A stretch of DNA of 64,000 nucleotides from Mobula hypostoma (Eukaryota). The DNA is taken from the NCBI RefSeq assembly GCF_963921235.1, contig NC_086097.1, positions 14,570,001-14,634,000 on the forward strand. The letters are read 5' to 3'. The position numbers and the translations under genes were made by a program. Numbering within the stretch: the first letter of the stretch is position 1; every line of letters begins with the position of its first letter. The notes below the pieces were generated by a model that worked only from the letters and a program-made list of their open reading frames with translations, was not told the DNA's origin and made no database searches. Shown one piece after another: positions 10,360 to 56,081 of the stretch.

Positions 10360-10660
10360 GTTTCATGACTTTCTCTCCACTCTGCTCTCCTATCCGATTC
10401 CTTCCTCTCCAGCCCTTTATCTTTCCAACCTGCCTGGCTCCATCTATCATCTTCTAGCTATCCTCCTTCCACTACCCCCACCCCCCGACATTTCTAATCT
10501 GGTGTCTTCTCTCTTTCTTCTCAGTCCTGAAGAAGGTGTTCAGCCTGAAACGTTGACTGTTCATTCATTTTCGCAGATGCTGCCTGTCCTGCTGAGTTCC
10601 TCCGGCGTTTTGTGTGTGTGTTGCTCTGGATTTCCAGCAACTGCAGACCTTCTCGTGTTT
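10360..10660 (+). mobile_element. Penelope-like 3' UTR/pseudo-LTR fragment
   Basis: Pyrimidine-rich tract, hammerhead, then gatgctgcctgtcctgctgagttcctccggcgttttgtgtgt...ttccagca, paralleling 13400-13670. Confidence 0.7.
10522..10559 (+). ncRNA. Minimal type I hammerhead ribozyme motif (best-preserved copy)
   Basis: cagtc CTGAAGA AGG-tgttcag-CCT GAAA CG TT gactg: perfect 5-bp stem I, intact core, GUU triplet. Confidence 0.7.
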
Positions 10661-11504
10661 ATGCTTTGCGGCTGTCTCTTCTCTCATCACCCTGGAGGGA
10701 GCTCGACCCCTCACTCACGACCTAACATTGCACCAGTCAGAACACAGAAGAAAACGACTTGGAAAAGCAGAACAGAACAGAACGTGGGAGGCAGAGTTTA
10801 GCACATGTGCAGGGATAGGGGCAGCTCTGCCTCACAGCATGGGCGAGCTCGCAGATGACTTCAGCACATCCACGTCGAACAGGCTCCCTCTCCCTTCACC
10901 CACCCGGCCCCCTCCGCACGTGGCTTTGCATTTCATACTGCACCCAAAAAGTCTCCCTCATTTCCAAAGGTGTGGGGGAGGGAGGCAATCAAGTAACCAA
11001 CTAGAAAAGAACAACTTTCAACACTAAATACAAACATTTAAAAAATCCTTTGGAAGAGAAGATGACAGGGGGTATGCAATCACACTCTTTTTTGTAGTTA
11101 CTAAAATATATATTTTGAAATACCAAGTCAATTATAAGTAGAAGAATTGCTCTTTGTTAAATGGCTAATATGGTGGTACTCTAATAAAATCTCCAGCACT
11201 TCCCGGCAAAAGCAGTCCTACAGCCTCCCCTATGTGGGAACAGCGAGAGTGCTGCCTGAAACTGTGCATTCAGCAGCCGGCAACACTTCTCTCTCCCTGC
11301 AGGGTCCAGACTAGGTAAAATTAAATTAATTACCACACCCGTACAAATCCCCATTCCAGATTATTCATTTCAAATCGCTTCCTGGAGTGCAGTCAAGGGA
11401 AGCGGACAGGGGTGTTTGGGGGGGGGGTGCGGGATGGGGGGAAAACGCATAAAAAATCTTTTACGGGAAACTTTTACAGTTCAAATTAACTGGCAATAGG
11501 AAAT

Positions 11505-11730
11505 TATTTATTTATTTGTTTGTTGAGATGCTGTGCAGAAAAGCCCCTTCCAGCCCTTCAAACCACACTGTCCAGCAGTCCCCTGATTTAATCCAAGCCC
11601 AATCAAGGGGCAACTTACAACAACTGATTAGCCTATATCTTTGGTCTGTGGGAGGAAACCCACTCGGTCACGGGGAGAACGTACAAACTCCTTATGGGCA
11701 GCATCAGGAATCAAACCCGGGTCACCGGTA
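11505..11730 (-). mobile_element. V-SINE (HE1-like), degenerate
   Basis: ttggtctgtgggaggaaaccc...cacggggagaacgtacaaactcctta. Confidence 0.75.
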
Positions 11731-12210
11731 AGGAACAGCAAACTCTGAAAGGATTGATAAAACCCTGAGAGTCCAATGAGAGGTTTACCAACAAGAGCGG
11801 ATGATTGCAGTCAATGTGGGCTTCCTCCACCCTTTCCCAACACATCAGTGTTACCAGAAACTTTCACTAGAGCAGAGAGTGTTACCAACATTTTGGCAGT
11901 ACTTGAACAGGAAGATCCCATAACCATAAGATGCAGGAGCAGAATTAGGCCATCTGGCCCATCAAAATTGCTCTGCCATTCCATCATGGCTGATTTATTA
12001 TCCCCCTCAATCCCATTCTCCTGGCTTCTTCCCTCAACCTAATCAAGGACCTATCAACCTCTACTCCACAGCCATCTGTGGCAATGAATTCCACAGATTC
12101 ACCATACTATGGGTAAAAAAAAAACCTTCCTCATCCAAATGGACATCCCTCTATTTTGAGGTTGGTCCTGGACTGCCCCACTATAAGAAACATCCTCTCC
12201 ATGTCCATTT

Positions 12211-12960
12211 AGATGGTAGGGCATCGAAGAATGCAGTAGAACGACGGGATCTAGGAATAATGGTGCATAGTTCCCTGAAGCTGGAATCTCATGTGAATAT
12301 GGTGGTGAAGAAAGCTTTTGGTATGCTGGCCTTTATTAATCAGAGCATTGAGTATAGGAGTTGGGATGTAATGTTGAACTTGTATAAGGCATTGGTAAGG
12401 CCAAATTTGGAGTATTGTGTACAGTTCTAGTCACCAAATTATAGGAAAGATGTCAATAAAATTGAGAGAGTACAGAGGAGGTTTACGAAAATATTGCCTG
12501 GGTTTCATCTCCTAAGTTACAGAGAAAGGTTGAACAAGTTGGGTCTTTATTCTTTGGAGTTTAGAAGGTTGAGGGGGGACTTGATAGAGGTGTTTAAAAT
12601 TATAAGGGGGATGGATGGAGTTGACATGGATAGGCTTTTTCCATTGAGAGTGGGGGAGATTCAAACAAGAGGACATGAGTTGAGAGTTAACGGGTTGAAG
12701 TTTAGGGGTAACATGAGGGGGAACTTCTTTACTCAGAGAGTGGTAGCTGTGTGGAACGAGCTTCCACAAGTGGTTGAGGCAGGTTGGATGTTGTCGTTTA
12801 AAGTTAAATTGGATAGATATATGGACAGGAAAGGAATGGAGGGTTATGGGCTGAGTGCAGCTCAGTGGGACTAGGTGAGAGTAAGAGTTCGGCACGGACT
12901 AGAAGGGCTGAGATGGCCTGTTTCCGTGCTGTAATTGTTATATGTTTATATAATTGTTAT
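12211..12960 (+). mobile_element. CR1-clade (HER1-like) LINE, 5'-truncated 3' end, relatively young
   Basis: Encodes LYKALVRPNLEYCVQF*SP...LSYRERLNKLGLYSLEFRRLRGDLIEVFKI...TRGH...FFTQRVV.VWNELP, the CR1 ORF2 C-terminus. It has an in-frame stop at 12428-12430, a 3' UTR hairpin region and a tgttata-like tail. Confidence 0.9.
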
Positions 12961-12970
12961 TCTATCAAGG

Positions 12971-13672
12971 TCTCCCGATGTGGCCTTTTATATATTGGTG
13001 AGACCCGACGCAGACTGGGAGACCGCTTTGCTGAACATCTACGCTCTGTCCGCCAGAGAAAGCAGGATCTCCCAGTGGCCACACATTTTAATTCCACATC
13101 CCATTCCCATTCTGATATGTCTATCCACGGCCTCCTCTACTGTAAAGATGAAGCCACACTCAGGTTGGAGGAACAACACCTTATATTCCGTCTGGGTAGC
13201 CTCCAACCTGATGGCATGAACATTGACTTCTCTAACTTCCGCTAAGGCCCCACCTCCCCCTCGTACCCCATCTGTTACTCATTTTTATGAACACATTCTT
13301 TCTCTCACTCTCCTTTTTCTCCCTCTGTCCCTCTGAATATACCTCTTGCCCATCCTCTGGGTCACCCCCCCCTTGTCTTTCTTCCCGGACCTCCTGTCCC
13401 ATGATCCTCTCGTATCCCCTTTTGCCTATCACCTGTCCAGCTCTCGGCTCTATCCCTCCCCCTCCTGTCTTCTCCTATCATTTTGCATCTCCCCCTCCCC
13501 CTCCAGCTTTCAAATCCCTTACTCACTCTTCCTTCAGTTAGTCCTGACGAAGGGTCTCGGCCTGAAACGTCAACTGCGCCTCTTCCTATAGATGCTGCTT
13601 GGCCTGCTGCGTTCACCAGCAACTTTGATGTATGTTGCTTGAATTTCCAGCATCTGCAGTATTCCTGTTGTT
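12971..13672 (+). mobile_element. Penelope-like element 3' fragment: GIY-YIG endonuclease C-terminus plus pseudo-LTR/3' UTR with a hammerhead motif
   Basis: ORF ending at 13245 reads CGLLYIGETRRRLGDRFAEHLRSV...PVATHFNS..HSHSDM...RLEEQHLIFRLGSLQPDGMNIDF, the typical PLE GIY-YIG domain. It is followed by a pyrimidine-rich UTR and CTGACGA...GAAAC. Confidence 0.88.
13539..13576 (+). ncRNA. Minimal type I hammerhead ribozyme motif within the Penelope-like element
   Basis: tagtc CTGACGA AGG-gtctcgg-CCT GAAA CG TC aactg: intact core, 3-bp stem II, ACGT palindrome in place of stem III, GUC cleavage triplet, stem I with one mismatch. Confidence 0.7.
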
Positions 13673-15607
13673 TTCTTTCAGTATTTGATAGGTTTCAATG
13701 AGATCCCTCCCCCTCCCACCCATTCTTCTAAACTCCATTGAGTACTGACCCAGAGCCATCAAACACTCCTCAACTATTAACCTTGGCGTGACAACAGCAA
13801 GGCAACTGGGATTTGGCGATATTGGTTGAGGGCTAAGTATTAGTCCAGGGTACCAGAGAGAGCTCTCCACGATGGCAGCATTAGTGTCTTTAAATGGACA
13901 ATGGACAAGACTGTACCTCAGTCCACTGTCTCGTACTAACGGGGGCCCTTCCCAACTATTGGGTTGGGGCATCAATATAATTGTCAAGCGCTCCGGTATG
14001 GGGACTCTTGCTTCACTCAGAGGGTCGTGACAAGGACACTCAAACAATCAGATCCGCTTCACTCACAGAGGGCTCAGCAAAAGAGATTCAGACACAAGTA
14101 TTTTCCCATCTACTCCACTTCCACAACAGAAGCTAAACATCTGTCGTCTGCTGCTGACAAAAATTTAAACAAAAATAAACAAGTTGGTTAACAGGATATA
14201 GTTTGTTTCCTAAATACGACTGGGATATTTGATTGTTTTACATAGAGGCGTTCTCTCGGCCATCCTGTACTCGAACAGCGCATTGCTCAGGAGCCGGTCC
14301 CTGGCTTCCCTCTACCTCCACTTCACCGGTTCCCCATCTGCTGACTCCTTCATTGTTTCTATGAAGGTTTAAGTTCCCACCCCAAAGTTGGCACCTCAGC
14401 AACACCAAGTTGAACAGCATGGGAAAATGAGCCCAGTCCCTCCTGCCTGTGCTGCCTCTTTATAATTAGCCCCCCCCCCCATTCCCGACGTGTATGAAAA
14501 GAAATTCTCTTCTGAGCACACATCCTTTTGTAGCTTGCTACTGAATCTGCCGAGCCACAGTGGTAATGGATTTTTTTTTAATGCATGGGCAGAATTTGTG
14601 AAAGAGAAGCTGATTCTCAAAATTTACAGCCAGTTAAAGTGGTCAATAAATAGCTAGGATTGCCAATGCTCTCAAACTCTCGGGGCCGTCCCGGGAAGAA
14701 CATAATATTATACATTATACACAGTGAGAAAGCAGCCATTAATTCTCTGGTGTGAATGTCACCGGCTGAAGATCACCAGCAGTACACTTCCACATTCACA
14801 GCACCTGATGCCACAACAATATACCAACAGCACAGCAAGGCTTCCACGCAACATTAAAAACAAAACATCGTAAACAGACACCGGGAATTACTTCAAGGCA
14901 AGAATTTAATCCGGGGAATTCAGATGATTATTCGAAACTACTTGACCTTCAAAAAGCCCGGTGTGCGAGGCGATTTGCACCCCGGGGTTAGATCGGTGTT
15001 TGCGGTAACTCAACCCATGCACCATTTCCCTCCACATAATGGCTTCTTTTAAAATCCGCTTGACTGGCCTGTGGACCAGGGCTGCAGAACCATTCAATCT
15101 TGCCTTCCAGAAACTGCGGCGGCAGCAGAATCAGTAAGGAAGGGGATAAATATTTGACGAAGGAAAATTCAAAAGGGCACAGGGATGTGGGACTGAGTGG
15201 GTAGGTATAGTGGTTCAGAGAGCTTCCTGTGCCCTGGGGTTCTGTAATTCCAAGGCAGAGCTGTTAGTGTACGGGACTAGCAAGGGACAATACTTCCATT
15301 GAATCATAAAAGCATTGAAGACTGGTATTAACACAGTACAGAAGGCCACTCAGCCCCTCCAACCTATCCCTGCCCGCAGATGAGCAACCCAATCAGTTTC
15401 GTTCTTTTGCTCTTTCCCAGTAGCTCTGCAAATTATTCCCTGTCAATTGGTGAGCTATCATATCTGAGTTACCTCACCTTCACCACCCCTGCAGGTAATG
15501 GATTCTAGGTTAAAAAAAAATTCTCTTCTCTACCTTCCCACCAAAATGTTTGATCTGTATATCTGGCTTTTAAGGCTTCCACTAATGAGCAAAATCTCCC
15601 TCTTTCT

Positions 15608-15687
15608 GAGGGGTTCCCAAGCTGGGGTCCACAGACCCCTCAGTTAATGGTAGGAGTCCATGGCATAAAAAAGATTGGGACCCCCTG
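15608..15687 (+). mobile_element. ~80-bp hAT MITE
   Basis: Same family; flanks ctctttct / ctctaact. Confidence 0.75.
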
Positions 15688-17410: not shown

Positions 17411-17694
17411 GTGCCTGTGATACGGATGCAAGTAAGTTCATCATTGCAACTGTGCGTTTCTGTACTTGTGTATGACAACAGATCCAAATCTGACATTTTT
17501 ACATTTTAGTCATTTCGCCTGATGGGGCTGGAAAACCCAGCTTTAAATTCATAAATTGTGTTGACATAATAAAATTATGTACAACGCTTGCGCTACAAGA
17601 TACAGGTCCAATTCTTCATCGAGTCCCCGAACTCGGATATACAGTACTCCCAGGGCAAGAGCGAGGTTACAGCAAAGATTTGATGTTCGTCCCG

Positions 17695-18080: not shown

Positions 18081-18439
18081 AGACTTCTGAAGAGGGAGAT
18101 GCAAAGGCCCAGATTTTGGAACTTGTTCACGTTGTACATTTTCCTTTTCCTTTGGCCTTCCTCGGTAACCAATCATAAACATGAGAAAGTACTGAAGAAC
18201 AGTCTACAGTCTGTTCATTTCCATCAAAGTTGCCTGACCTGCTGAGTTCCCCTCGCATTTTATGTGTGTAACTCTGGTACCCAAGCCTTCAGTTTCCCAG
18301 TAAAGAATTCCCCTGCTAAATCTTTAAAGTACTTAAACCTCTCCATGACTATCAGCCAGATAGTTTAATATTTATTGTGGCAAAACACAATAGTGGATAA
18401 TGAACAGGAAATAAATAATTATTTTTGAACACTCCAAAT

Positions 18440-21610: not shown

Positions 21611-23359
21611 GGCACCCATATTGGGGATAGACCTGATATATACGTATCAAGTCAATCAGGCAAAGACAGCTGCTTTTCAGGGGGATTATCAACTCAGGCA
21701 TTGTTGCCCTTCTCCAAGTTACCCCATGACTCCTTTGGAGAAATGGCGGCAGAAGGTGACACATCAACCCTCCCCACCTCTGGTTTGCGCCCCTTCCCCC
21801 AATGGCTACCTCCAACCTACCATGAGGACATCTGATTATGGAGTGAGCATCCCTAACTAGCCATCCACACATACAGGGGCCATGGTGGGATGCCTCCCAA
21901 AACATATTGCCGCGGAAACTGGTCAACATCAGCCATCCATCAGCCACAAGCCCTTCCAATTGAACATAGGAGAATTATCAGACATAAGCTGACGTGGCTG
22001 CATAAGGAGAAACAAGTACAGTTGGACAGAGAGGCAACTTTCAAAGGAAATCAAAGCAAGAGGCACAGTATTGAGAGGTTTTGAGCAGGTATTCTAGTGC
22101 TTAGGGCCGTAGAAACATGGTCATTAATGGTGGAAGAAATTCGGGGTGAGGTCTTGGAGAGTTATAGAGCTAAGGACATATTTGGGATGGGGAGAGGAGA
22201 TTCTCTCTGGGCACCTGACCCTGATTAGTGCAGCCCGCAGTTCTACTGGCCTTTTTCTCTATTGCCTCGGCCTAGGATGACAGAGAAGGTACAAGAGACT
22301 GCAGATGCTGGAATCTGAGTCCTGTTGTAGGGTTTCAACCCAAAACATCAAACATCAACAATTCCTTTCCTCCTACAGATGCCGCTCAACCCAGTGTGTT
22401 CCTCCAGCAGATTTGTTTCTTGCTGAAAACAAGAGCCTATTTGCTTTCAGAGAATCCACCCATTCATACGGTTTCAGTGCCACACCATGCACAGCACAAA
22501 CCCATGGCCGTCGGGAAAGGTGGGCACAAATTCTTGCTCCCTTTTCAATCTGAGTTCACATTTATTGAAATTCCAATACCCACCCACTCACCAAGTCTCC
22601 AAAAATAAAAAGAGTTGGTGGAAATGCCAACTCTGCTTTCATTTGAATGAAGGGCTTAGAAATATTATTTCTCATCATCATCACACCAATATTTGCTGCA
22701 TCCTATGCCGTGGGTGATCATGATCTTTGACCATGATGGTTCTTGGCAAATTTTTCTACAGAAGTGGTTTGCCATTCCCTTCTTCTGGGCGGTGTCTTTA
22801 CAACCATTATCAGTTCTCTTCAGAGACTGTCTGCCTGGCATCAGTGGTCACATAACCAGGACTTGTGATATGCTCCAGGTGCTCATACTACTATCCACTA
22901 CCTGCTCCCATGGCTTCAAGTTACCGGGATCGGTGGGGGGGGGGGCTAAGCAGGTGCTGCACCTTGCCCAAGGGTGACCTGCAGGCGAGCGGAAGGAAGG
23001 GGCGCCTTACACCTCCTTTGGTAGAGACATATCTCCATCCCGCCACTTCCCAAAAGTAAAGAAAAACAAGGAGGGTAAATTAAATCTGAAAGCATTTATG
23101 GAGACACAAGAGCCTGCAGATGCTGGAATTTGAAGCAACATATAAATAGATAGACAAATTCAGTGGGTCTGATAATATCTATGGATGGGTTGAATCCCTT
23201 CGCCTGGATTGATCAACCAGATAAAGGGTCTCCACCCATATCCCATATCTGTGAATGCCCTTTTCCCTCTGTAGACGCTACCTGACTTGTTGAGTTCCTC
23301 GAGCTTTTTGTGTGTTATTTCTGAAGCATTTGTAACCAGTTCTGGAGATTTTCAGAAAT

Positions 23360-23760: not shown

Positions 23761-25092
23761 TAGTTTGTAGTCTGCTTAAGGGCTCAATCTTGTCAAACAT
23801 AACCAGTAAAACCCTGGCAGTGGGAAATAAATACAGAAACGAAGATCCAAATATTCCACATCCATTTGTTCTCCTTTATGGAATATTTCTAAGTTCTCAA
23901 TTAACTGCAAGATGGCAGCATTGTACTTAGAAAGGAGCAGCTCAAATGGGACAGAAAGCCATCTTTATCTGGACTGATTTTGTAATCTCTGTGAATGGCC
24001 ATGCTCTGACAGAACCAACTCACAGACCTGCACAAGCACAAACAATGTGTTCACACAAAACGAATTTCAGTGCTTTAATAGTCCCCTTAAAGTACGGGAA
24101 ATACCGAAGGCTTTCTTTTGGATTTCAGTTCGAGGGAAATCAAACAGCTTTTGATCAGATTACATTTTCCGAAAACAAGATTTCTGAAGGTCCATTTATG
24201 ACCCTTGTGCATTGCAAAGCGCTTTATAGCCAATGAACAAATACATTATCAATATGTTATCAGTTGCTTCTCCGCGAATTGGGCTAATGGAGCTGAATGT
24301 AAACATGTTGTAAACACCAAAAGCCAAGCTCAGAATTAATCCATTTCTGCTCGGTGGACGAGTCCCAGGAGGAAGGGAACTCTGGGATCGGCACTGCAGG
24401 CATAAGCTTCCTCTCCTGGGAGCATGGATCAGAAATTCAGGCAAGGAGACCGCCGGGATTTTTCATCCCGTTAATTTTAACAGATGGAAATTCCTGAGGG
24501 TTACACTGGACTCTTCGCCCAAATTCCTGATCGGCAATCCCACTGGGGGGTAGCAAGATCCTCGAGTAAGAAACTCAAGTGTTTTACTGCTCACAAAGTG
24601 TGAGTAAAATGGTGGTCAGAGGTAGGCCTTTGGAACCTCAGCCTTAACGCTTCTGCAGCCTGGATCACAACAGTGGGTCAGAGATTCTGCTGCAGAGATA
24701 AGGTACTGGCTCTGGCAACCCAAACACGAGCAGCCAGCGTGGGCTGTCCCTCTCCAAATTTAAAGCAGAATCAGTTATGCATTGCTGGATTATGCAGCTC
24801 AGTGCCAGAAACTTAACAGTGAGCAAAGGTTACCCTTCTAATTATCCTCAACAGCTCAGGTTCCTGTTCCATGACTAAATATAGACAAGGAGGTGCCAAA
24901 AAGTGCCTGAAAGTCCTACACACTACTGGCAATGCAGGTAGATGGGAAAAAAAAACAGATTAAGAAACACCCAGACAGAACATAGACCTGTTCTAATAGC
25001 TACCACAGGCGGCATGTTGATAGGGGCTTGGAAGTTGGGCCTTTTCCTGTCTCACGGACGCGGAAGGGCAGTTGGACAGTTGCCCTCCTGCA

Positions 25093-25310
25093 ATGCACAC
25101 AAAAATGCTCGGAGGAATTCAGCCTGTCAGGCAGCATCTGTGGAAAGGAATAAAGCATCAACATTTCGGACTGAGACCCTTCATAAGTCACGTTGGTTTG
25201 AAACCTCAGTTGTTTCTTCCTCTCCATAGATGCTGTCTGGCCTGCTGAGTCCCTCCAGCATTTTGTGTGTGCATAACTCTGGATCTGCAGCATCTGCAGA
25301 GTCTCTTGTG
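25093..25310. mobile_element. Palindromic Penelope-derived short element
   Basis: Inverted arms at about 25093-25145 and 25224-25274 surround degenerate hammerhead remnants. Confidence 0.7.
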
Positions 25311-28086
25311 CTCTCCTCACATGCTTGTGAGTGCCAGGAGAGGCAGGCGGATTTGAGTATCAAAGGGAGAAGTATGGACCAGCAGGGACTTCTCAACCGG
25401 GCCACTGTGTCACTGTGTTGTGGGAAATACCAAACAAACAGCAAAATGAGGCCCACTGTGGTGGATGCCAGCTCGTGTTGGGTGTGCCAATGGTGTGAAG
25501 AAAAAGAAGCAGAATTTTAAAAAGGACCTCGCCTGTGGTGGTGTTGGAGGGACAGGATGGAGGAGCACTGCAGCGTTAATTTTACCCAGAATGTTTCTGA
25601 ATTATTGAAATGTGAGCCAAACTTAACTGCACGCTCAGCATTATTACAATCAGCATCACATCTCAGGTACGATGTAAACAGGCCTGCCTGCATCAATTCT
25701 GAAATAGCCTCTGTAGGTACGAATGACTCATTGATCTCAAATCAACCCCACAAGTCATCGACAACAAAGCACATCCCTAAAGAGGATCCTTCGACACACC
25801 AATTTAAACATTCTCTATTGTATTTAATTGCTCCCGCATACAAAATATTATTTTTCTAAAGAATAAATTGCATTTATTTAAGCGGCTTTAGTTCGGTGGT
25901 CAAAACTTTCTTTTACACTTTGGGGAAAGCTTACAAGTAGGCAGCTCTCCCTCTCTTTCTTCAGTATATTATCCCATTAGGGGGTCAGTAATGGCTTTGC
26001 AGAACGAAAGCCAACATTTTGGAACGACCACTTACAGCAGTTTAAGCACCCCCAACATCTCCTACGTTGATTTTACAATTTGTTGTTAGCGAGCTTTTTG
26101 CCTTTTATAGAAGAGGAGTTTCGATATCAGTGGGTTTCAGAATAGTACAGGAGGCAACAGTTTTGAAGAAAATCCCAGTCACAATAAATCTGGCAGAAGA
26201 TCTGTACAAGGCCAGCATTAGTAGAAACCTAGCACAGTGTCCCAAGGCTGGATTTCCAATCCAGCCTATGTGCGTAATACTGTAACGTAGCCTTGAGAAT
26301 AGCAAGGGGAACTAAGCCAAATAAAGCAACTCTAATAAACGTTTCCAGACCAAATCGTGACAGGATTAATACTGAAAAGGAGGGAAGGGAAAACAAAAAA
26401 AAAAGCAAGCCTGTAAAGATACTTTGACACTAAATCTTTCCAATTCTGTGTTGTGCTCGAGTGTACGCACTTCACAAATGGAGTGTGGCAACTTGGCTGC
26501 TGGGTTTCCTACCTTTTAACAATGCATACCTCAAAAAGTACTTCTGTATCCCCCGGGAGAGTGGGAGAAAATAAAAGTCGCTCTCAGAAAGATCCGCAGT
26601 AAAAATGAGTACAATGCAAAGTTAAACTTGTGATTTTAGATGTGTTTTTTAAAATAAATGGGCAGAAGTGAAGATTAAATAGTCAACAGATGCATTTGTC
26701 TGGCCTACTGAAAGCATCACATTATGTTCGGCTTATATCACCATTTTTAAATCAAAATTGTACCAAAGCCCCAGGAAGGCAATAGATGGCGGGGGGGGGG
26801 GGGGTCATAATTTTGATGTTACCTGAAGATGGGTCCACTCTCTTCCGGACTGTCTCATGAAGCAAGCAAGACTCTTCTCAAGTAGGAAGGTGCGAAAATC
26901 AAAGCGGGAATCACGAGAAAAAAAGAGGGAAGACTGCAAAAGCTGGGAATCACGGATTAGAACAGAGAGTGCTGGAGGTACAAGTCAGGTCTGTAGAGAG
27001 AACAAGACCCTTTATCAGAACTGCATGCTGATGAATGGCCTACAGCCCAAACATTAACTCTTTATTTTTTTCTGGGAAATGGGAGTTAAATCTACATGCT
27101 CTCATAATCTATCCCAGAATAGATTGTAAAACACAAGAAAGCAACTATACAAACATGGACAGAAGGCTTGAGGTGTGTCATGAAAGGAAAGATCTGTATT
27201 TATACAGGTCGAGTGCAACTAAAGATCATTTTGATAGAGCGGCGACTTGCTTCCTGAGGGAAGGGTGAGGCCAAGGACAAGCAGTCAGTCTGCAAATTAC
27301 ACCCAGGTCTTTCAGTAAACACCTCCACAGATGAAGGCTGGTCAAAATTTGTCTTTCTACCACACAAAAATGGATGTTTGATCACTTGTTACATTTACAT
27401 TTGTGACTTCTGCTAACTAAACATATTAAGGGATGATGTAGGGAGTCATGTCACAGCTCAACTATGACCTTAATGCTCAATAAGTTTGAGGAATTAAACT
27501 GCTCCGCTTGTTCCACACAGTCCTACCTCTGAACGTCTTTAAACAAATCTGGCCAGTAATGGGTTAAACATCAGTTGTTCACTGTTGCCAAGAAACGGAT
27601 GTTATCAGAGTTCAATTTCTGAATTGGTTTATTGCGTTTGTGATGAAAACTCTAAAAATGAAGAGTATTCGGACTCTAAGGCATTAACCTTGCCTCTTCC
27701 CTTTCAAAATCTGAAAGACCTGCTGTGAATTGGCAGCATTTTCTGTTTTTAATTTCAGGTTCCTAGCATGTACAATGTGCTTTTTTAATCTAGATTCTAG
27801 CCAGAACCAAAACTCTCTCAAATTCAAACTCAATCTTTTTCCCCTTTCAATTGATCAAACACCTTATCCACCTTGATAAGACACCACAGCTGCTATCAAT
27901 CCTGACGATGCAGAGAACAAGAGAGCTAACTGCGAGTGAATTACAGGGCTGAAAATTCAAATCAATTTAATTGCAGTCTTTAATGTGGCCCCAACCAGCA
28001 TTGAGGGAGGCTTGGAATACTACAGTTGGAAGAGAGCTGAAGATGGATAACACAACCTGGGATTGTATACAAGCACATGCAGCTAA

Positions 28087-28627: not shown

Positions 28628-29186
28628 GTCAGGGAGGAAACTGACACTGTGGTAAAAAAACAGCCAAAGGGAGTGGTTCTTCCCTTTGTCTGTCCTTTAG
28701 TATCCACAGCGAGGGACAGCAGCCTCTGCTAAGTCAACAAGGCAGCTGAGATGTAAAACCCATTATCTGGGTAGAAGCATGTGCAAGTCCCTCAGCACAC
28801 TGCTGAACAGTTCCTTGTGTTGATTATAAAGTGAGCCCGGCAGTTTTGGAAGCATTGGAACTAACTAAATAAAACCAACAAGTAACTACTGTTTAAAAAG
28901 CCTTACTCAACTGCTGTAAGGATCTTGTAACTTCTCTGATTTTTCTAGCAAGCAGTTTACCAGAAACGAGTTGCAAGTCAAATCAAAAGTCAAAGCATAT
29001 TTATTATCAACTACTTCAGACCCATTTTCTTGCGGGCATTTACAGGAAAATAAAGAAGAACAATACACTTTATGAAAAACTATGCATAACCAAAGATTGA
29101 CAAACAACCAATGTGCAAAAGAAGAGAGACTGTGAAAATGAATAAACAGATAGATAGATAGATAGATAAACAAACAATAAATAGAC

Positions 29187-29290
29187 AACACACACAAAAT
29201 GCTGGAGGAACTCAGCAGGTCAGGCAGCATCTATGGAAATGAATAAACAGTCGCCGTTTTGGGCTGAGACCCTTCATCAGGACTGGAAAC
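29187..29290 (-). mobile_element. Penelope-derived short element with a mutated hammerhead, inserted in a Rex1-like 3' tail
   Basis: caacacacacaaaatgctggaggaactcagcaggtcaggcagcatctatgg...cagtcgccgttttgggctgagacccttcatcaggactg. Confidence 0.75.
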
Positions 29291-32155: not shown

Positions 32156-32869
32156 TTGAGACATTCATGACACTTACTGTACTCACACAACAACCTGGTG
32201 ATGGCAAGTGACACAGAAGTCAGTGTACCATTTGGGAATGCAGACTACTGTCTGCAGTACAAAATGATTTGCCGTGATTAGTTCAATTGAGGAAGGAAAA
32301 AGATATAAGAGTGCTGTGTAAAAGTCTCAGGCACTTATATACAGCTAGAATACCTGAGTTTTACACAGTATTGTGGTAATTTTATGTATTGCACTATACT
32401 GCTGCTGCAAAAAAAATTCATGATAACACACACAAAATGATGGAGGAACTCAGCAGGCCAGGCAGCATCTATGGAAGGAAATGAATAAACATTTTGGGCC
32501 AGGACTCTTCTTCATATGTGCGTGATGGTAAACCTGATTCTGATATGGGGTCTCTATTGTGGACTGAGAGTGGGAAGGGGGCAGGGAGAGGGGAGTCGTG
32601 GTTGGGAAAAGGGGAAAGGAGTGGGAAGCACCACAGAGACATTCTGTAAGGATCAATAAAACAACTGTTTAGAATCAAATGGCACTGCCTGGTGTCTCAC
32701 GGCTGGGTGTGTCTGCACCCGTGCCACAGCTCCCCCACCTTTCCACCGGCAAACCTCTGCCACCTGTCCCACACCCCTCCCACAGTGCTCCACCCTCACC
32801 ATTCCCCAACATCCTTTGCTCCTGCCAGCCAGATCTACGAACTTGCTTTCCGCTCCACGCTGACAAGTA

Positions 32870-36610: not shown

Positions 36611-37099
36611 ATGTACTGCCAATACTAATCAGTTATGACTACAGCACAACTAAAGGCAGGGGCACAACAAAAGGAGGAATGGACAGCACACATTTGCAGA
36701 GAAGGTACAGGAGCAACGTCACACTCATACTAGGGTAAAGGTGGTCTGTAAGTACCCAGCAGAACAGACTGCCTCCACCCAGAATCACAGAGTGCCATTG
36801 TCTGACGTTCAGAATTTCATACGCTTGCACAAAGAGCTGTTTGCTCTCGGGGACCAGAGAGAAAAACCAGGTGTTTTTACTGAGCAACTACAGAGCCGCC
36901 AAACAGCAGCAAAAGAAAACACTGGCAGCAATTCCTGGGCTGCTCCAGACGGGGGAGGAAATTTCACCTTCTTTTAAAATCAACAGCCGAACAGTACAAA
37001 GGTCAGACCCAAACACAACAGATCAACTTTGCAACCCCTGATGCCAGCCAGCGGCACTCCCTTCACTTCCCTGGGCAACCAGGTCACAACAGCGCCAGA

Positions 37100-37397
37100 G
37101 CAACACACACAAAATGGCGGAGAAACTCAGCAGGTCAGCCAACATCCATAGAAGGGAACAAAGAGTTGACATTCCGGGCTGAGACCCTTCTTCAGGACTG
37201 AACCAGACCGTTATTTGACGTGTAGATGCTGGAAATCCAAAGCAACACATATAAAAATATTGGAGGAACTCAGCAGGTCAAGCAGCATTGATGGAGAAAG
37301 AGTAAACGGTGAAGGTCTCGACCCGAAACGTCGACCGCTTACTCTCTTCAAATGATGCTGCCTGGCCTGCTGAGTTCCTCCAGCATTTTGTGTGTGG
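37100..37397. mobile_element. Two tandem Penelope-derived short elements: one with a mutated minus-strand hammerhead (37163-37200) and one palindromic (37243-37397)
   Basis: The arm caacacacacaaaat(g)ctggaggaactcagcaggtc occurs twice. The second is closed by the inverted arm gatgctgcctggcctgctgagttcctccagcattttgtgtgtg. Confidence 0.75.
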
Positions 37398-37848: not shown

Positions 37849-37854
37849 ATGTGT

Positions 37855-37910: not shown

Positions 37911-37912
<2 letters not shown>

Positions 37913-41745: not shown

Positions 41746-41769
41746 ATACTTATATTTTTCTGGACCATC

Positions 41770-42734: not shown

Positions 42735-42768
<34 letters not shown>

Positions 42769-44600: not shown

Positions 44601-46185
44601 TTATCAATAATAAACTAACACTAATTCCATTTTATCTACCTATCAAAAGCTTCGCTAGATCTGGCCCCTGTTGCAGATTACCACACTCTGCAAAGTGCAA
44701 CCTCAGTTTTAAGTAACCGGGCCCTTATCTTGTATCCACTTCACCTCAACTGAGACGAGAGAAAACATCTTAGCTTCTACCCTGATATGCCCCCCTCAGG
44801 ATCTTCCATGTCCCAATAAGGTCTCTGCTCATTCACCTAAGCTCCACCGCACCCGCTGCTCTAAGCACTTATTTGATCCCCTTTCAACTAAAATTAGACT
44901 TGAAACAAAAGATGCACACTAGAAACCACTGCAGAGTTTACAGCCAACTTTGGTGGTATCAATTTCCTTCCAAAAGGGAAAAAACATGAATTCCAAATTG
45001 CCCTCTGCACAGGTTTTGTGAGATCTGATTTCTCGCCGCCTGTTCCCAAAGTTATTAAACTTCTCAGCGACTCGAGGAGACAGAGAAGCAGAGGCTGCCT
45101 GCTATTGTGTGGAACAGGTCTGACTGACTTGCCAGTCTGTTGCAATGACTGCTTTACATCGGTATTTGTTACTCTAGGCTCTAAAGCAGAGAATGTTCTT
45201 CGTCCTTCTCACTGCAGAAGGCAACTGTCTGCACAACAAAGGAAGCCTTGCACGGATAAACCCGAGGACCAGGGATCACAAAAAGAAAATCACACGTTGA
45301 ACAAGCAGAGGCAAACAGATAAAAGGAGCGTCTCTGTCCTTGGACCTGGCAGGCCTCCTCCCCACCCGCACCCTTCCCCCTCACTCCCCGGCCCAAATCA
45401 ATGCTTGGACTGGCTCCTCACTTTAGCGAAGGTGAATTGGCTCCCGGCCAAGCTTAGCTAACTTTGCACTTCCTGCACAGGAAGCTTCTCGATCAGCATA
45501 CAGATCTTTACAAGCTCATAAAACCCACCCCAAGACACCTCTTAAAAGAAAAAGAGGAAAGCGAAAATCAAAAATACAGTGATCCGTCTCATTTCAGCCC
45601 GACATCAGCAATGCTATGTTCAACTGGGTCTTCCCAGAGTCACTGTGCTGCTATTAACCCATCGAGGTTCACCGCCAAGAAATGCGGGTTTGTTTTCAGG
45701 TACGGAGGCTGCGCACATTTAATTGGCCTATAATCTTTTGTTTTCCGGAGGCCATTAAAATGTACTGCTCTGCTGAACTGCACTTAGGGTCCAGCTTTAT
45801 GAACTGTAGACAATATGTGTGCGACCAGTTCAAAGAAGCACAGCAACCACTGTACGATGGTGCCTGCACTGGGAGACAAGAAAGACTCCGGCATCTGCCC
45901 ACCACAACTGCTCAGCAAACAGGTCTAATGTGGTAGCAAACCAAGGCCAGGTGCTGCAACGCTCTGACGGCTCAGTAAGTGTATGCTGTCGAGCCACAGC
46001 AAAAAGCAAGACGCCCTTCTCGCCGCTGAGTAACCGGACACAGGCCGGACGATCGGGGGTGAGAGTGCAGGCAACCACAACTGGGGCGTGCTCCATCTCC
46101 ATCCGGTGTGCCCACACCGTTCTGTCGGATGGTGACCAGGGAGCGACAAACCTGCCTTCTGTGCTCCTCCTAGACACCAGAGACC

Positions 46186-46363
46186 CTGCACAGACAAAAT
46201 GCTGGGGGGGCTCAACAGGTCAGGAAGCACCTATGGAGGGGAATAAACAGATGACGGTCGGGGCCGAGACCCTTCATCAGGACCGGGTCAGGACAAACGA
46301 CTGCTCAACTCCCTCCACAGGTGCTGCCTGACTTGCTGAGTTCTTCCAGAATCTTCTCTGTGC
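46186..46363. mobile_element. Palindromic Penelope-derived short element with a mutated minus-strand hammerhead
   Basis: Inverted arms flank gggccgagacccttcatcaggac. Confidence 0.7.
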
Positions 46364-48147
46364 GCTATCTGTGTTCCTCCTTCCCTAACAGAGGGCAGCG
46401 AATACCTGGAATGTGCTGCCAGAGGAAGTGGTGGAGGGGGGGTAATTATTGTAAAATTTAAGAGGCACTTGAATATGTACGTATATGTAGGAGGAGGACT
46501 TGGAGAGAGTTAGGGAGAATGCGGAAAACTGAGACTTACACTGGTTGGCATGGACCACAAGGGGCCTGTTCCCATGCCCTCGATGACCCTCAGCTGGAAA
46601 ATCGCACCATTCCCACCACCGGTGACAGTTATATTCGAGGGACGAGGGAGCAGCCCTGCTTGGCTCCACCTCACAAATTGCAGTGAACGCATCCCAACAG
46701 GCGGCTCAGTGGCAAGAGCCGCCACCTCCCGGTTCCAGCCGCTCAGCTCCGGATCTCTGTGTGGGGTCTGCATGGCCTCCCGTGGGCTTCCTCCATGTGC
46801 TCCAGACTCCTCCCACACCCTAAAGATGTGCAGCTCGGTAGGTTAATTCAGCGCTATAAATTGCCCGTGGTTAAAGAAGTAGGATTTGGGGAGAATTGAT
46901 AGGAAAACGGAGGGAAATAAATAGCATAAATGCGAATATAGAAACTGCATCTCCATTCAGTACAGCAACAGCTGAGCATCGGACTGGAAGTCCCTGAAAA
47001 GGACCGTGAGAATGGCCGAGAGGATCATAGTGATCTCCCTACCGTCTACCGGGGACATTCATCAGGAACACTGCGCATGCAGGGCCCTGAGTATTATCAA
47101 GGATCCTACCCATCCATCCAGCATCCTCTTTGACTTTCTACCGTCAGGCAGGAGACTCCGGTGAATAAAAACATGAGCGGTCAGGATGTTAAACAGTTTC
47201 TTCCATCAGGCCATTAGGGTTCTGAACTCCCCGCTGTATCACATTCAAAGTGTCACCGGTTAATTTGTTTGTACCCTACAATAGTTAATTTATGCATAAC
47301 TCATAGAACCGTAGAACTATAGAACACTACAGCACAGAAAACAGACCATTAGGCCCTTCCAGTCTGTGCCGAAATTTTATTCTGCTAGTCCTATTGACCT
47401 GCATCCAGTCCATCACCCTCCAGACCTCTCCCATCCATGTATCTATCCAATTTATTCTTAAAACTTAACAGTTAGATTTAATTCTTACTTTCCGAAGTTA
47501 TTGTGTGTTATGCGTATTGCTGTGCTTTACACCCTGGTCTGGAAAAACTTTGTCTCGTTTGACTTGACTTGAACGTAGTACATCCAACATTACAGGTTCT
47601 TCAACCCATGGTGTTGTGCCAGCCTTGTAACCTACTCTTAATTTACCCCTTCCTTTCCACATAGCCCTGTTTTTCTATCATCCATGTGCTTGATGGTCAG
47701 TCTGGGTTTAGTAGGCCGAATGGCATCTTTCCAAGCAGATGGCTCTATAACCCTATCCCAATGACTGCAGCTCAGTTGGTAATACCCTCCCCTCAAGTCA
47801 GAAGGCTCTGGGCTGAAGTCTACTCGAAATCCAGCTTGAGAAAGTGCACCACAGTTGTTGAAAGTGCACCTTGGACAAGATACTAAAGTTGAACGTAAAA
47901 GGCAGCATTTCAAAGATGATCATTGGTGTATTTCCCCCTATCTGTGCTTCCACCAAGCCCTCAAGAGACAGATTATCACTCTACTGAGAGCTTGTCTTGT
48001 GTGTGAACTGACTGCTGTCTTTCCCAAAATTTGTGACAGTGACCGAACTTACTGCTTATAAAGTGACAAAGGGCACTCCATTGTGAAAGGCCACATGTAA
48101 CCATTATCACCGGCAGAACTTCCTCACCGTTACCATTCCAACCAAAG

Positions 48148-49470: not shown

Positions 49471-49974
49471 TACTGGGAGATTTGATCCCTCAGTTTATAA
49501 GCACTGTTCCAACAGTTTTTAATAGCCAATTAGGAGCAGTTGGTCTGCCTGGTAGTACTATGGATACAGGTGGTCGAGGGGTAGATGTGGACAGAGTAGG
49601 TGATCGTCCAAACAGCACTCTAAGCACGTAATCAATCAGTCATCATTTAGGGATGCCCAAATCCATTAAAGGAACGTCACTAAACGCTATAGCTTGTGAA
49701 TGACTGGCAGATTTCTCAGAGTTCTGAATGTAATAGGCTTTAACACAAAGGGAAAATGTTGACGTTCCGTAAGTCTTCCTCACCACTGGCAGCCTTTCGA
49801 AAGTTGTAAATTTAACAAGTTACAAATCACTTCAGAGGCCAATGCCAACGAGTGAACTGACAGCGTTAATTACAACGGCCTGAAGGACCAGCAGACCAAG
49901 GGATGGCTGTACCAGTCACAAACAGGAAGGAAATGTTAGTGAGAGTGAGTAAAAAGGAGGGAAGAAAGAAAATA

Positions 49975-50491
49975 GTCTCAGTGGCCACTTTATTAGGTAC
50001 ACCTGCTTGTTAATGCAAATAACTAATCAGCCAATCACGTAGCAGCCACTCGACACACAAAAGCATGCAGACATGGTCAAGAGTTTCAGTTGTCGTTCAG
50101 AATGGGGGAAGAAATGGAATGATTGTTGGTGCCAGACGGGGCGGTTTGAGTATCTCAAAAACTGCTGATTTTCTGGGATTTTCACACACGTCTCTGGAGT
50201 TTACAGAGAATGGTGTAAAAAAAAAACCCAAAAAAATCCAGTGAACGTGGGTGAAAATGGCTTAAATAGAGAGGTCAGAGAATAGCCAGACTGGTTCAAG
50301 CTGACAGGAAGGCGAGAGTAACTCGAATAACCACACTTTACAACCGTGGTGTGCAGAAGAGCATCCCTGAATGCACAACACATCGGACCTTGAAGTGGAT
50401 GGGCTACAGCAGCAGAAAATTGTGAACGTACACTCAGCGGCCATTTTATTAGGTACAGGCAGGCAGTGCCTAATAGAATGGCCATTGAGTG
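49975..50491 (+). mobile_element. Non-autonomous Tc1-like DNA transposon
   Basis: TIR ctcagtggccactttattaggtac at left and cctaatagaatggccattgagtg-TA at right. The interior translates to MIVGARRGGLSISKTADFLGFSH, resembling a Tc1 transposase N-terminal HTH. Confidence 0.7.
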
Positions 50492-50983
50492 TATACTATT
50501 TGTGGCTGGTTCCTGGCTGAGACATTTGAGAAGGTACCTTGGGCTTTCCAGCCGGCCATTCTCTGATGTAGATCGAAGCTTTCCAGTTGAAAACGTTCCC
50601 CTGCAGTCCATTTTAAAAGCAGGCCCTGATTCAGATTTTTACAGTGGAAACCCCTGTTGACAACATGAAGGCTAAACAGAATTGAGGCAGAAGAGTGATT
50701 GTCCGACATCAAACTGCTGAGAAATAGCTGTATTCTTTGCTTTTGCTGCAGTGCGCTCTATAAAATTACCTGGAACAGCACGTCCGTTCAGCCTTTCATA
50801 TATACCACCCCTTTAACAGAGTGCTCCTTTGCTTTCTCACAGCCCCGAAAAATAGGAACAAAGAACAATAAACAGGCTCTTCAGCCTGCAATCTTTTAAC
50901 CTACTCTAAGATCAATCTAACCCTTCTCTCCAGTTTTCTATCATCCATGTGTCTATCTAAGAGTTTCATAGACGCCCTTAATT

Positions 50984-51062
50984 CCGGGGCTCCCAACCTT
51001 TTTTACGACATGGACCGCTACCATTATCTGAGGGGTCTGTGGACCCCAGCTGAGAACACCTG
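50984..51062 (-). mobile_element. ~80-bp hAT MITE (degenerate), inserted in a CR1 fragment
   Basis: Same family, reversed. Confidence 0.7.
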
Positions 51063-51189
51063 CCCTCTACCTCTGCCTCTGCTACCACTCTAGGCAGGGT
51101 GTTCCATGCACTCACCACTCTCTGTGTAAAACAAAACTTACCTCTCACATCCCCTGCCATACTTTCCTCTAATCACCTCAAAAACAGAA

Positions 51190-51310
51190 GCAACACACAC
51201 AAGATGCTGGAGCAGCTCAGCAGGTCAGGCAGCATCTACGGAAGTGAATAAACAGTCCACCTTTCAGGCTGGGACCCTTCTTCGGGACTGGAGAGGAAGG
51301 GGGAAGTTGC
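51190..51310 (-). mobile_element. Penelope-derived short element with a mutated hammerhead
   Basis: Same arm sequence, followed by cagtccacctttcaggctgggacccttcttcgggactg. Confidence 0.7.
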
Positions 51311-54300: not shown

Positions 54301-54457
54301 AGCTGAGACACACACACACACACACACACACACACATTATAGCAACCCCAGAGAAAAGCAAGTTCTCTACATCAATAGCTGTGCTTTATTTTTAAACTAC
54401 CATGTTGGGTATATCAGGAATAGAATCAGGGCAATTCATCACACAGAAAATATCCAT

Positions 54458-54725
54458 ATTTTATTTTATTTTATTTAGAGATAGAGAACAGATCCTTCCA
54501 GCCTAACAAGCCACATCGTCCAGCAACGCGCCTTCCCAACCCTAGCCTAATCACAGGACAAGTAACAATAATCAAATACTGTAACCTGCTAACTGGTATG
54601 TCTTTGGACTGTGGGAGGAAACCTATGTATTCACGGGGAGAACGTACAAACTCCTTACAGACAATGCTGGAATTGAACTCAAAACTCTGGAATGCCCCAA
54701 GCTGTAAAGGCATTTTGCCCACTAA
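54458..54725 (-). mobile_element. V-SINE (HE1-like)
   Basis: Family match in reverse orientation with a (tttat)n tail. Confidence 0.8.
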
Positions 54726-55721
54726 CCCACCCCTCCACAACCCCAACCACCACTGCTTTATCATTTCCGGTCAGAGTCACCTTTATGTACAGACATTGCT
54801 GTGCCTAGCATCATTTTATAGACACACCATCAATCTACGTGTATGAGCCATCTTATAAATTTATATTTATTGTATTTTTCTGTATTATTGTCTTCTTTAC
54901 CTTACTGTATTTTTTTAATGCTGCATTGGATCTGGAGTAACAATTATTTCATTCCCCTTTACACTTGTGGACTGGAAATGACATTAAGCAACCTTGAATC
55001 TTGTATCCTCCCTCATTCCAGAGGGTGGAGTTTAACACAACAAAATGGAGGCTCTCGTGTGTGATCAGTGAACAGAATGGCCCACTGCTGTAAAGGGCAA
55101 ATTTCGGTGGCATAGCACCACCCCATCCCCAAGGGTTCTTCTATTATTTACTTGCTCTCAGGCAGGCTGGCACTTTTTCCCCAGATTCGCTTTAGGAAAG
55201 ATTACGTCAATTATTTGGCGATGGGTCTGGAGTCACCAAAGGGTCAGACAAGAATGCCGGTGGTGCTCACGGCTCCCTGGATTGTCACTGCCATCATACC
55301 TGGGGGAGATGAAGCAGTGCGAGTCTGCTTTCAGGGAATGCAGGAAACTGATGAGCGATGGGCCAGAGAAGGGAAATGTGGAGATTGGAAAAACAGTACC
55401 CAAACAACATGCTCTTTCTGAGTAAATCTCTCAAAACAATTCACGCCTACAAGGGCCTACAGCAGCTTCCCGAGAGGTGGGAATCCCAAGCTCCCCCATA
55501 CAAGCACGGCAGCCTGGCCGCAACCAGCATTCTCGGTCTGAAAGCTCAGCGGCCTTCAGTTCTTCAGCACCAAGGCTCAACCACACAATATCCTATACAA
55601 TTATTTATAATTTCTTCCGTATATGAAATTCTACAGCACAGGAACAGAACATTTGGCTCATCTGCTCCACGCCGACCAACATTCCTAGCTAAGCCTGCCT
55701 TTGGCCCATATCGCTCTAAAC

Positions 55722-55802
55722 CAGGGGTTCCCAACCTGGGCTCCACAGACTCCTTAGTTAATGGTAGGAGTCCATGGCATAAAAAAGGCTGGGAACCCCC
55801 TG
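55722..55802 (+). mobile_element. ~80-bp hAT (Charlie-like) MITE with a perfect 8-bp TSD
   Basis: TIRs caggggttcccaacc / ggctgggaaccccctg; TSD ctctaaac at 55714-55721 and 55803-55810. Confidence 0.85.
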
Positions 55803-56043
55803 CTCTAAACCTATACCTGTCCAATTTGAAGTGTCCATAATATACTGTACCTGTCTCAACTGCTTCCTCTGCCAGTTCATTCCATACACTGGTCACCCTC
55901 TGCCGCTGTCGGGAAGGGGGTCCAGGAGCTTTTGGTCCCACACCATCAACTTCAGGAACAGTTATTACCATCGGGCTCCCAAACCAGAGGGGGGATAACT
56001 TCACTCACCCCAGCACGGAACTGATTCCATAACTTATGGTTAT

Positions 56044-56081
56044 AAGTCCTGACGAAGGATCCCAGCCCGAAACGTCAATTG
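56044..56081 (+). ncRNA. Hammerhead motif with intact core but weakened stems
   Basis: aagtc CTGACGA aggatcccagccc GAAA CG TC aattg, followed by the PLE-type sequence ctagagatgctgc...ccagcaacttt. Confidence 0.5.

Follow-up and report, generated by a model that had tools for sequence, protein, structure and literature searches.

Decayed minimal hammerhead ribozymes in a ray genome as probable insertion by-products of a Neptune-type Penelope-like element

Minimal hammerhead ribozymes (min-HHRs) located in the terminal repeats of metazoan Penelope-like elements (PLEs) have been in print since 2014 (Cervera and De la Pena, PMC4209133), where those of fish are assigned to Xena, Poseidon and Neptune elements. 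The repeat family described here was found in a window, a 64-kb stretch of DNA from the ray Mobula hypostoma, and all counts given below refer to this one window rather than to the whole genome. As in the published min-HHRs, the motifs are of type I without a helix III loop and with a palindromic 15.2-16.2, they carry an unpaired base before G10.1-C11.1 and a helix I of 4-5 bp, and they can occur behind an RT-GIY-YIG ORF. Most motifs in that study were also single, which was ascribed to truncated PLEs, and opposite-strand pairs were likewise separated by 100-700 bp. The present host differs in being a ray, whereas that paper, supplements aside, appears to note no cartilaginous fish. Helix II also differs, with three pairs plus a U-G pair here versus 7-8 in Schistosoma. 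The literature on PLE hammerheads in sharks or rays yielded no report of this family, although supplements may list it. The ray Neptune hammerhead family is an addition to the already described PLE min-HHR kind.

Non-LTR retrozymes (Cervera and De la Pena 2020, PMC7229834; Li et al. 2026, bioRxiv 10.64898/2026.07.22.740005) form tandem arrays in which every cut-to-cut unit has its own hammerhead, give rise to circular RNA, and have been reported in one cartilaginous fish. Like the ray repeats they are non-coding, contain a type I hammerhead and are akin to PLE terminal repeats, but the 64-kb window includes no tandem hammerhead array. The Poseidon element PAc of Anolis carolinensis (Frangieh et al. 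2024, PMC11167929) initiates internally and has both strands extended in vitro, where uncut RNA was used and the hammerhead needs protein to act. Its hammerhead is positioned about 110 nt upstream of two RT start sites and there is an optional tail of 30-40 nt, an arrangement resembling that in the window, and its inserted copies similarly keep an uncut hammerhead. Unlike PAc, the window element is of the Neptune type and has a core ATG that opens no long frame in the window copies. Complex PLE insertions (Arkhipova et al. 2013, PMC3846280; Craig et al. 2021, PMC8557442) share with the ray copies 5' truncation, a head-to-head inverted copy, a tail that is confined to one end, target duplications and microhomology junctions. 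However, the junctions in the window concentrate in the hammerhead, and those accounts do not appear to link inversion junctions to hammerhead helices.

A sequence-only reading of the window had named 11 sites as one recurring motif (10522, 13539, 22318, 25155, 27027, 29248, 37163, 37310, 46250, 51253 and 56044), and a single repeat family is indeed present at every one of these coordinates. The list was nevertheless an under-count, as a profile of the element end detected 28 pieces at E<=0.05 in the window versus zero in the reversed window, and five of the named sites (25155, 29248, 37163, 46250 and 51253) are on the minus strand. A type I hammerhead search with a descriptor of the core plus ACGU matched three places in the window (10527, 13544 and 56049), whereas not one of 200 order-2 Markov simulations contained a match. 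An Rfam scan of the window gave seven matches at E<=1, none to a hammerhead family, but this silence is no evidence against a hammerhead because the motif lacks helix III. An exact-pattern scan of metagenome contigs returned zero matches. The family pieces are the terminal-repeat end of a Neptune-type PLE, consisting of a minimal type I hammerhead and 65-105 nt of sequence that we call the tail.

Across 23 arms, the majority letter is the core letter at all 11 core positions (CUGAnGA, GAAA and UH boxes). Majority letters also form the helix pairs, with 71% of cells paired versus 23-46% for slid controls. In helix II the family register places an unpaired A ahead of the G10.1-C11.1 pair (GC in seven, GU in four and other letters in two of 13 copies); the AGG/CCY pairing first proposed fits the CCT variants only. 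Helix III is a loop-less palindrome, ACGU in all three core-intact copies. Judged by their letters, the core, the helices and ACGU agree with the earlier assignment of these motifs to the minimal type I hammerheads of PLEs, whose helix III is near-absent and palindromic.

Three of the 11 named copies (10522, 13539 and 56044), all on the plus strand, have a complete catalytic core, and only 10522 keeps both helices as well. This copy (10522..10559, plus strand) has five of five helix I pairs, a four-pair helix II closed by A-U, and a predicted GUU cut after 10554. It is embedded in a PLE end recognized by profile (10450..10660, plus strand, 5' limit approximate) that comprises UTR, hammerhead and long tail. 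The copy at 13539..13576 (plus strand) has a predicted GUC cut after 13571, and both predicted cuts, as given earlier, are correctly placed. In 13539 and 56044, the helix I pair adjoining the core (1.1-2.1) is a C-A mismatch. For 13539 this is a private G-to-A change, with G at 13572 in 77-93% of contig depth in all four sequencing runs. Site 56044 is in a 90-bp insert that begins at helix I (56040..56129, plus strand) and whose helices are damaged; it is flanked by a 15-bp target-site duplication with one mismatch (56025-39 / 56128-42). Core reading of other profile matches revealed mutated G12 and U16.1 in the single copy of site 29248 (29185..29290, minus strand), mutated A13 in that of 37163, which begins at helix I (37094..37202, minus strand), and mutated U4 and H17 in that of 51253 (51177..51308, minus strand). 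The profile also located decayed single copies at 3505..3614 and 18186..18288 (both plus strand) and at 32406..32514 (minus strand, absent from the earlier list).

With the core or a helix broken in 10 of the 11 named copies, the claim that the family spreads self-cleaving modules is overstated. CpG positions are changed in 29-42% of cases versus 15-24% elsewhere. Divergence is slightly lower in the core than in the tail (15% vs 22%, p=0.07), a point against the by-product explanation favoured below. In flanking context, the predicted helix pairing probability is below 0.1 in five of six copies. Dimeric hammerheads are beyond what cofolding models, and it gave no information on dimers. Covariation in helices I and II, whose lack the sequence-only reading had said would count against it, was not found among 13 window copies (score 0.129 vs a shuffled mean of 0.189, with 490 of 500 shuffles at least equal to the observed value). 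The copies are star-like decayed relics, which makes the test a weak probe of the ancestral element.

The kinship of the family is revealed by a 5'-truncated Neptune-type PLE at 12958..13675 (plus strand), which includes an ORF end, a pyrimidine-rich UTR, a hammerhead and a long tail. The ORF end (12961..13245, plus strand) corresponds to the last ~94 codons of the PLE ORF and encodes a GIY-YIG endonuclease, assigned by protein relatives and by a Pfam GIY-YIG match that is below the cut-off (E=8e-4). The fragment is 92% and 87% identical to ray proteins. Of 126 candidates 53 matched, the best ones being from rays, and among 7999 scored there were 97 longer relatives, the majority of which have RT and PLE-type domains. 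A Zn-finger-like CxnCxxC linker joins RT and GIY-YIG in 111 of 121 evaluable relatives, and the window copies are truncated downstream of it. Judged by this linker the element is most likely a Neptune-type PLE; RT phylogeny is what also separates Neptune from Nematis. The window itself has no RT, and the N-termini of full-length relatives have no match there. The hammerhead at 13539 is downstream of the ORF, as had been stated, but 294 nt past the stop at 13245 rather than directly behind it. The ORF as originally drawn does contain the PLE ORF end, but its upstream third (12817-12957) is not PLE sequence. The same order recurs at 56872-57250, within an insert (56774..57250) in which an inverted tail arm beginning at the cut site is joined to a decayed GIY-YIG fragment and a UTR that ends inside the hammerhead core.

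The copies carry the marks of PLE insertion, namely 5' truncation, inverted partners, one-sided tails and target-site duplications. Together with the GIY-YIG and RT relatives, these sequence features agree with the earlier proposal that the family was spread by PLE machinery. Relative to the cut, 22 of 28 5' ends fall in the 41-nt hammerhead (-35..+5) versus two in the next 41 nt (p=4e-5, or p=0.001 at 65% detection). Eight of the 28 pieces, most of similar length, begin at the 5' edge of helix I, give or take 2-3 nt. An uncut ribozyme is present at the 5' end of most pieces. The 3' ends cluster at +65..78 (9/28) and +102..105 (7/28). Artificially shortened arms were still detected up to +30 (19-21 of 21-23), with 5' boundaries read by hand and detection power measured using a profile that was itself derived from these copies. 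Three of 15 elements are flanked by target duplications of 12-15 bp; among 300 random intervals, a length of 11 bp is reached in 4%. A spliced leader as the cause of the helix I boundary was rejected, as the copies share no upstream sequence. Joints at 13540 in run contigs were also dropped as a 5' boundary, since the reference copy has an odd base adjoining and the UTRs of other subfamilies differ. None of the 22 listed run entries is of RNA, and the run contigs, which do not convey ends, strand or level, showed no position rich in ends. As a point against the by-product explanation, random truncation would predict a less sharp 5' pile-up than the one observed, and a similar one is also expected from a short master element. 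The clustering suggests run-off copies of uncut RNA combined with fold-back at the ribozyme helices.

Nine head-to-head inserts have nine different junctions. The pair at 9016..9232 has a 12-bp target-site duplication and arms whose first positions, counted from the cut, are -9 and -31, and the decayed pair at 9882..10059 has arms beginning at -12 and +19. At 22279..22430 an inverted tail stub is joined to a decayed copy beginning at helix I (site 22318), whereas both arms begin at helix I in the pair at 23103..23324. Site 25155 is the minus arm, with a broken core, of the pair at 25082..25311, and site 27027 belongs to a decayed pair at 26930..27073. In the pair at 37219..37397 (site 37310) the minus arm starts from +2 and the plus arm, which wholly lacks the CUGA box, from -24. 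Finally, the pair at 46168..46373 (site 46250) has arms beginning at -31 and +1 and a 14-bp target-site duplication. The inverted arms, of 53-83 nt and 76-79% complementary, and the flanking duplications might recall MITE-type DNA transposons with terminal inverted repeats, in which the hammerhead would be a passenger. We regard this as highly improbable, because the ends are unequal, with a tail on one side only, the interiors vary among inserts, the duplications, at 12-15 bp, are long and differ in length, and the same arms also occur singly and behind the PLE ORF. By our own reading of the alignments, the long tail is on one arm only in five of five evaluable pairs.

Within one insert the two arms resemble each other no more closely than they resemble arms from elsewhere (partner ranks 1-15 of 22), which leaves a single-template origin as one possibility. 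In three of the nine inserts one arm starts from +1 or +2 and its partner at or near a matching CAGTC, which is the 5' strand of helix I or else the Gln-Ser codons of the ORF as judged from relatives. Two further inserts have arms beginning on either side of helix II. These junctions favour a variant of the PLE origin in which the hammerhead helices alone, by fold-back priming and cDNA template switching, produce the 5' pile-up with no transcript start at helix I. Self-priming at palindromes has been proposed earlier for PLE inversions, and in Drosophila the start site is about 120 nt upstream of the intron end that corresponds to helix I. However, fold-back is insufficient because non-inverted single copies (56044 with its target duplication, 37163 and 22318) likewise begin at helix I, and we consider this variant rather unlikely.

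The sequence-only reading had favoured a non-autonomous, retrozyme-like family. In this form, a discrete SINE- or retrozyme-like unit of ~100-140 nt from the PLE terminal repeat would be transcribed independently and copied in trans by PLE protein. The pieces of similar length that begin at helix I would be expected, it has been argued that retrozymes derive from PLEs, and PLEs do have known non-autonomous derivatives. Moreover, in two of four sequencing runs one contig each has the tail joined back to the ORF end (~437 nt back), which shows that related genomes contain short tandems bearing two hammerheads. Within the window, in contrast, the motif is in none of 16 tandem rows, and the only close same-strand neighbour (37219-37309 by 37163) lacks the core. 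Only three of 28 pieces begin at the cut (+1 or +2) and none ends there, which argues against cut-to-cut units. The diversity of junctions and the lack of covariation also speak against such a family, and the short copy 56044 has diagnostic variants in common with the ORF-bearing 13539. This explanation is therefore improbable.

The host gene is represented by a minus-strand exon with a BCL11 CCHC zinc finger (62540..62985, limits approximate), and the repeat pieces are downstream of it. No other BCL11 exon was found in the window by motif. The location inside a BCL11B intron that had been claimed is therefore borne out for the exon, whereas the intron itself is presumed, with no second exon in the window. 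Judged by its residues, the gene is presumably BCL11B rather than BCL11A. Isolated intronic hammerheads are known in amniotes, and 10522 taken alone is predicted to fold as a hammerhead, so one or more copies might have been co-opted to cut or process BCL11 pre-mRNA. However, all three core-intact copies are antisense to BCL11 (intact arms number 0/8 in sense vs 3/7 in antisense orientation, p=0.08), there is no same-strand partner close enough for a dimer (the nearest intact pair is 3 kb apart), and the predicted 10522 fold is lost with its flanks. Co-option is accordingly a very remote prospect.

We consider it probable that the copies are insertion by-products of an autonomous Neptune-type PLE and no separate mobile family, because the motif resides in a terminal repeat behind a GIY-YIG gene with RT plus GIY-YIG relatives, and because the copies show two tail end positions, 5' truncation, often inverted partners, in some cases 12-15-bp duplications, and nearly always decayed ribozymes. 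By analogy with the Anolis PLE, the element's protein would nick DNA and begin reverse transcription inside its own RNA, 65-105 nt downstream of the hammerhead and on uncut RNA. It is possible, at somewhat less than even chance, that the 5' edge of helix I marks the start of the template RNA, which would be why products mostly stop at 100-140 nt, with head-to-head pairs arising when both target strands are extended or when cDNA folds back on the ribozyme helices. Cleavage by the hammerhead of a full tandem element would proceed through a dimer or with the help of protein. Isolated single or opposite-strand copies in the intron are almost certainly non-cleaving and drifting neutrally.

For repeat annotation, which is the main relevance of this ray family given that its kind was described in 2014, 28 relic pieces per 64 kb are a large share of repeat content and resemble MITEs or ribozyme genes. 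More tentatively, the short copies may be a fossil record of the PLE cycle, in which tail-primed run-off on an RNA beginning at the 5' edge of helix I yields 100-140 nt with an uncut hammerhead, and the ribozyme helices, or occasionally the cut itself, set the inversion junctions. If so, this would explain why lone minimal hammerheads vastly outnumber PLEs in animal genomes, and genomic 5' ends would reveal where the RNA starts and how often it is cleaved in vivo. Through the way in which 5' ends and junctions cluster in the hammerhead, both the in vivo cutting of PLE hammerheads and the reason why PLEs insert as head-to-head pairs could be examined on a genome scale.

All 11 sites at which the sequence-only reading saw a recurring hammerhead motif proved to be members of a single repeat family, with five of them on the minus strand. 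A descriptor of the core plus ACGU matches the window at 10527, 13544 and 56049, and scored 0 in each of 200 order-2 Markov simulations. A profile made from 23 arms, as we call short copies of the terminal-repeat end of a Penelope-like element (PLE), recovers 28 such pieces in the window (E ≤ 0.05), whereas the reversed window gives no match. The motif runs in the order 5-bp helix I, CUGAnGA, an unpaired A, helix II (three G-C pairs plus U-G, with a 4-nt loop), GAAA, CG, UH and helix I, and A15.1-C-G-U16.1 forms a loop-less palindrome. This anatomy bears out the proposed PLE-type minimal type I hammerhead with a near-absent palindromic stem III (ACGU), as it fits the description of the minimal type I hammerhead of PLEs in the accessible portion of PMC4209133. 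An Rfam scan of the window gave seven matches, none to a hammerhead family, which is expected because the motif lacks helix III. At least three subfamilies differ just 3ˊ of the predicted cleavage site (the cut), one including 13539 and 56044 and another the 9016-9232 pair and 3505-3614.

The core is kept only in the copies at 10522, 13539 and 56044, the latter two with a C-A mismatch in the core-adjoining pair of helix I. The mismatch in 13539 is a private change, because G dominates at that position in all four sequencing runs (77-93% of aligned contig depth). Taken alone, only 10522 is predicted to adopt the hammerhead fold (−8.7 kcal/mol), which disappears once flanks are included. Among 13 window copies, 71% of helix cells are paired, above slid controls. 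The covariation proposed as a check on stems I and II did not emerge from these copies, whose score falls short of the mean across shuffles and is equalled or exceeded in 490 of 500 of them. Across the 23 arms, 29-42% of CpG positions are changed, and non-CpG changes affect 22/146 core positions (15%) versus 290/1337 in the tail (22%; p = 0.07). Such a pattern marks copies that have decayed since they inserted.

The parent element is represented by 12958-13675, where the end of a GIY-YIG endonuclease (12961-13245) has 92% and 87% identity to ray proteins. Its relatives comprise 53 matches among 126 candidates and, via a shark relative, 97 proteins of at least 822 residues out of 7999 scored. 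Most of these 97 carry RT and PLE-type domains, and of 121 evaluable relatives, 111 have a CxnCxxC linker upstream of the endonuclease. Because the relatives carry these domains and the linker, the stretch is classed by sequence as a 5ˊ-truncated Neptune-type PLE, the linker being a mark common to Neptune and Nematis (PMC8557442, in part). Contigs from related sequencing runs that match it number in the thousands (15,580 in X1), which shows many variant copies and is not a copy number. The stretch abuts a LINE-like 3ˊ fragment with open frames (12200-12957), creating a chimeric 142-codon frame. The frame 5ˊ of 12958 belongs to this fragment, which we take from its motifs to be CR1-type and for which Pfam gave no match; 56376-56684 holds a related piece in inverted orientation. 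A second, decayed GIY-YIG fragment is found at 56872-57180, within a PLE fragment (56872-57250) that, unlike every other copy, ends within the hammerhead core without a tail, through either a deletion or an unusual priming event.

Piece boundaries were hand-read from alignments relative to the cut. The 3ˊ ends fall at +65 to +78 in nine of the 28 pieces and at +102 to +105 in seven, with 11 between or near these clusters and one truncated. Head-to-head pairs (palindromes of two inverted arms) make up nine of the inserts, with a long tail on one arm only in all five evaluable pairs. Target duplications of 12-15 bp were found for 3 of 15 elements tested, and 4% of 300 random intervals reach at least 11 bp. 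The pieces thus bear the PLE insertion marks described in the available parts of PMC3846280 and PMC8557442, namely 5ˊ truncation, an inverted partner and a 30-40-nt tail at one end. Lone motifs and opposite-strand pairs have been attributed to truncated PLEs since 2014 (PMC4209133, sections consulted). At 37094-37397, three arms (two minus, one plus) lie within 300 bp and may be one insertion, partial-tandem plus inverted; a search for a target duplication around them found none. The 56044 element lies within one copy of another dispersed repeat family (56113-56386, 5191-5451, 40092-40274 and 58722-58835), with a palindromic target. The window also holds a near-perfect 71-bp palindrome (50426-50496), probably a MITE in our judgement, weakly matching mir-9256 (42 bits versus a gathering threshold of 80), and a CA-rich minisatellite (57628-58214; period 36-38 bp, ~14.5 copies).

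Of the earlier proposal, spread by PLE machinery is supported and a distinct non-autonomous, retrozyme-like family is not. Animal retrozymes are by definition tandem arrays with a hammerhead per unit (PMC7229834 and bioRxiv 10.64898/2026.07.22.740005, parts of each). None of 16 tandem rows in the window holds the motif. The cut marks the 5ˊ end of only three of the 28 pieces and the 3ˊ end of none. All nine palindromes differ in their junctions and so were not copied from one master. Diagnostic variants common to the short 56044 and the ORF-bearing 13539 in the alignment likewise count against retrozymes. Two observations count against PLE insertion products: among the 15 joints listed of 91, single contigs in two of four runs connect the tail to the end of the ORF ~437 nt upstream, and therefore short tandems exist elsewhere; and arms of the same insert are no closer than arms of different inserts.

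The 5ˊ ends pile up in the 41-nt hammerhead, which holds 22 of 28, with three farther upstream and three downstream. The adjoining 41 nt hold two (22 vs 2, p = 4e-5; p = 0.001 assuming 65% detection of shorter pieces). When arms were artificially shortened, 19-21 of 21-23 were still detected up to +30 and 15 of 23 at +40, the profile used having been derived from these copies themselves. Of the 5ˊ ends, eight map to the 5ˊ edge of helix I (position −31) or no more than 2-3 nt away. Pyrimidine tracts ending in CAG adjoin the helix I 5ˊ strand at 10505-10526, 13515-13541 and 57225-57245, and by consensus motifs we take the sequence around −31 to resemble an initiator and also, with the pyrimidine tract ahead of it, a splice acceptor. 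Three palindromes have one arm that begins at +1 or +2 and meets a CAGTC in its partner; this CAGTC is either helix I or, judging from relatives, two ORF codons. The Penelope element of Drosophila has an intron whose end coincides with the helix I 5ˊ edge (PMC4209133, in part).

The Anolis PLE protein nicks and extends both DNA strands in vitro; reverse transcription begins at two internal sites, which set the tail, and copying of uncut RNA reaches its 5ˊ end. The hammerhead cleaves only with protein, and no in vivo reads end at the cut (all from the available sections of PMC11167929). Most ray inserts would have been primed 65-105 nt 3ˊ of the hammerhead. Copying might end after 100-140 nt at an RNA 5ˊ end located at helix I, an option to which we give somewhat less than an even chance; the Drosophila start, well upstream of helix I (PMC4209133, sections consulted), counts against this. 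Alternatively, cDNA fold-back on the ribozyme helices would stop copying at that length. Head-to-head pairs would arise from two-strand extension or fold-back. The hammerhead of a full tandem element would act as a dimer with low activity; lone or opposite-strand relics are without a partner.

The suggested location within a BCL11B intron stands in part: a host exon encoding the BCL11 CCHC finger lies near 62540-62985 (minus strand), but no other exon was found in the window, and the intron is thus inferred. From its residues, we take the gene to be 11B rather than 11A. Cores are intact in three of seven arms antisense to the host gene and none of eight sense arms (p = 0.08). With every core-intact copy lying antisense, the copies are unlikely to affect the BCL11 transcript. 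Minimal hammerheads of fish PLEs, Neptune included, were published in 2014 (PMC4209133), and a 2026 preprint describes PLE-derived vertebrate retrozymes, one cartilaginous fish included (bioRxiv 10.64898/2026.07.22.740005), as far as the accessible portions of both extend. Neither this ray family nor the hammerhead 5ˊ-end pile-up was found in a literature search of open main texts. The ray family is real, abundant and mostly dead, and is of a kind already known.
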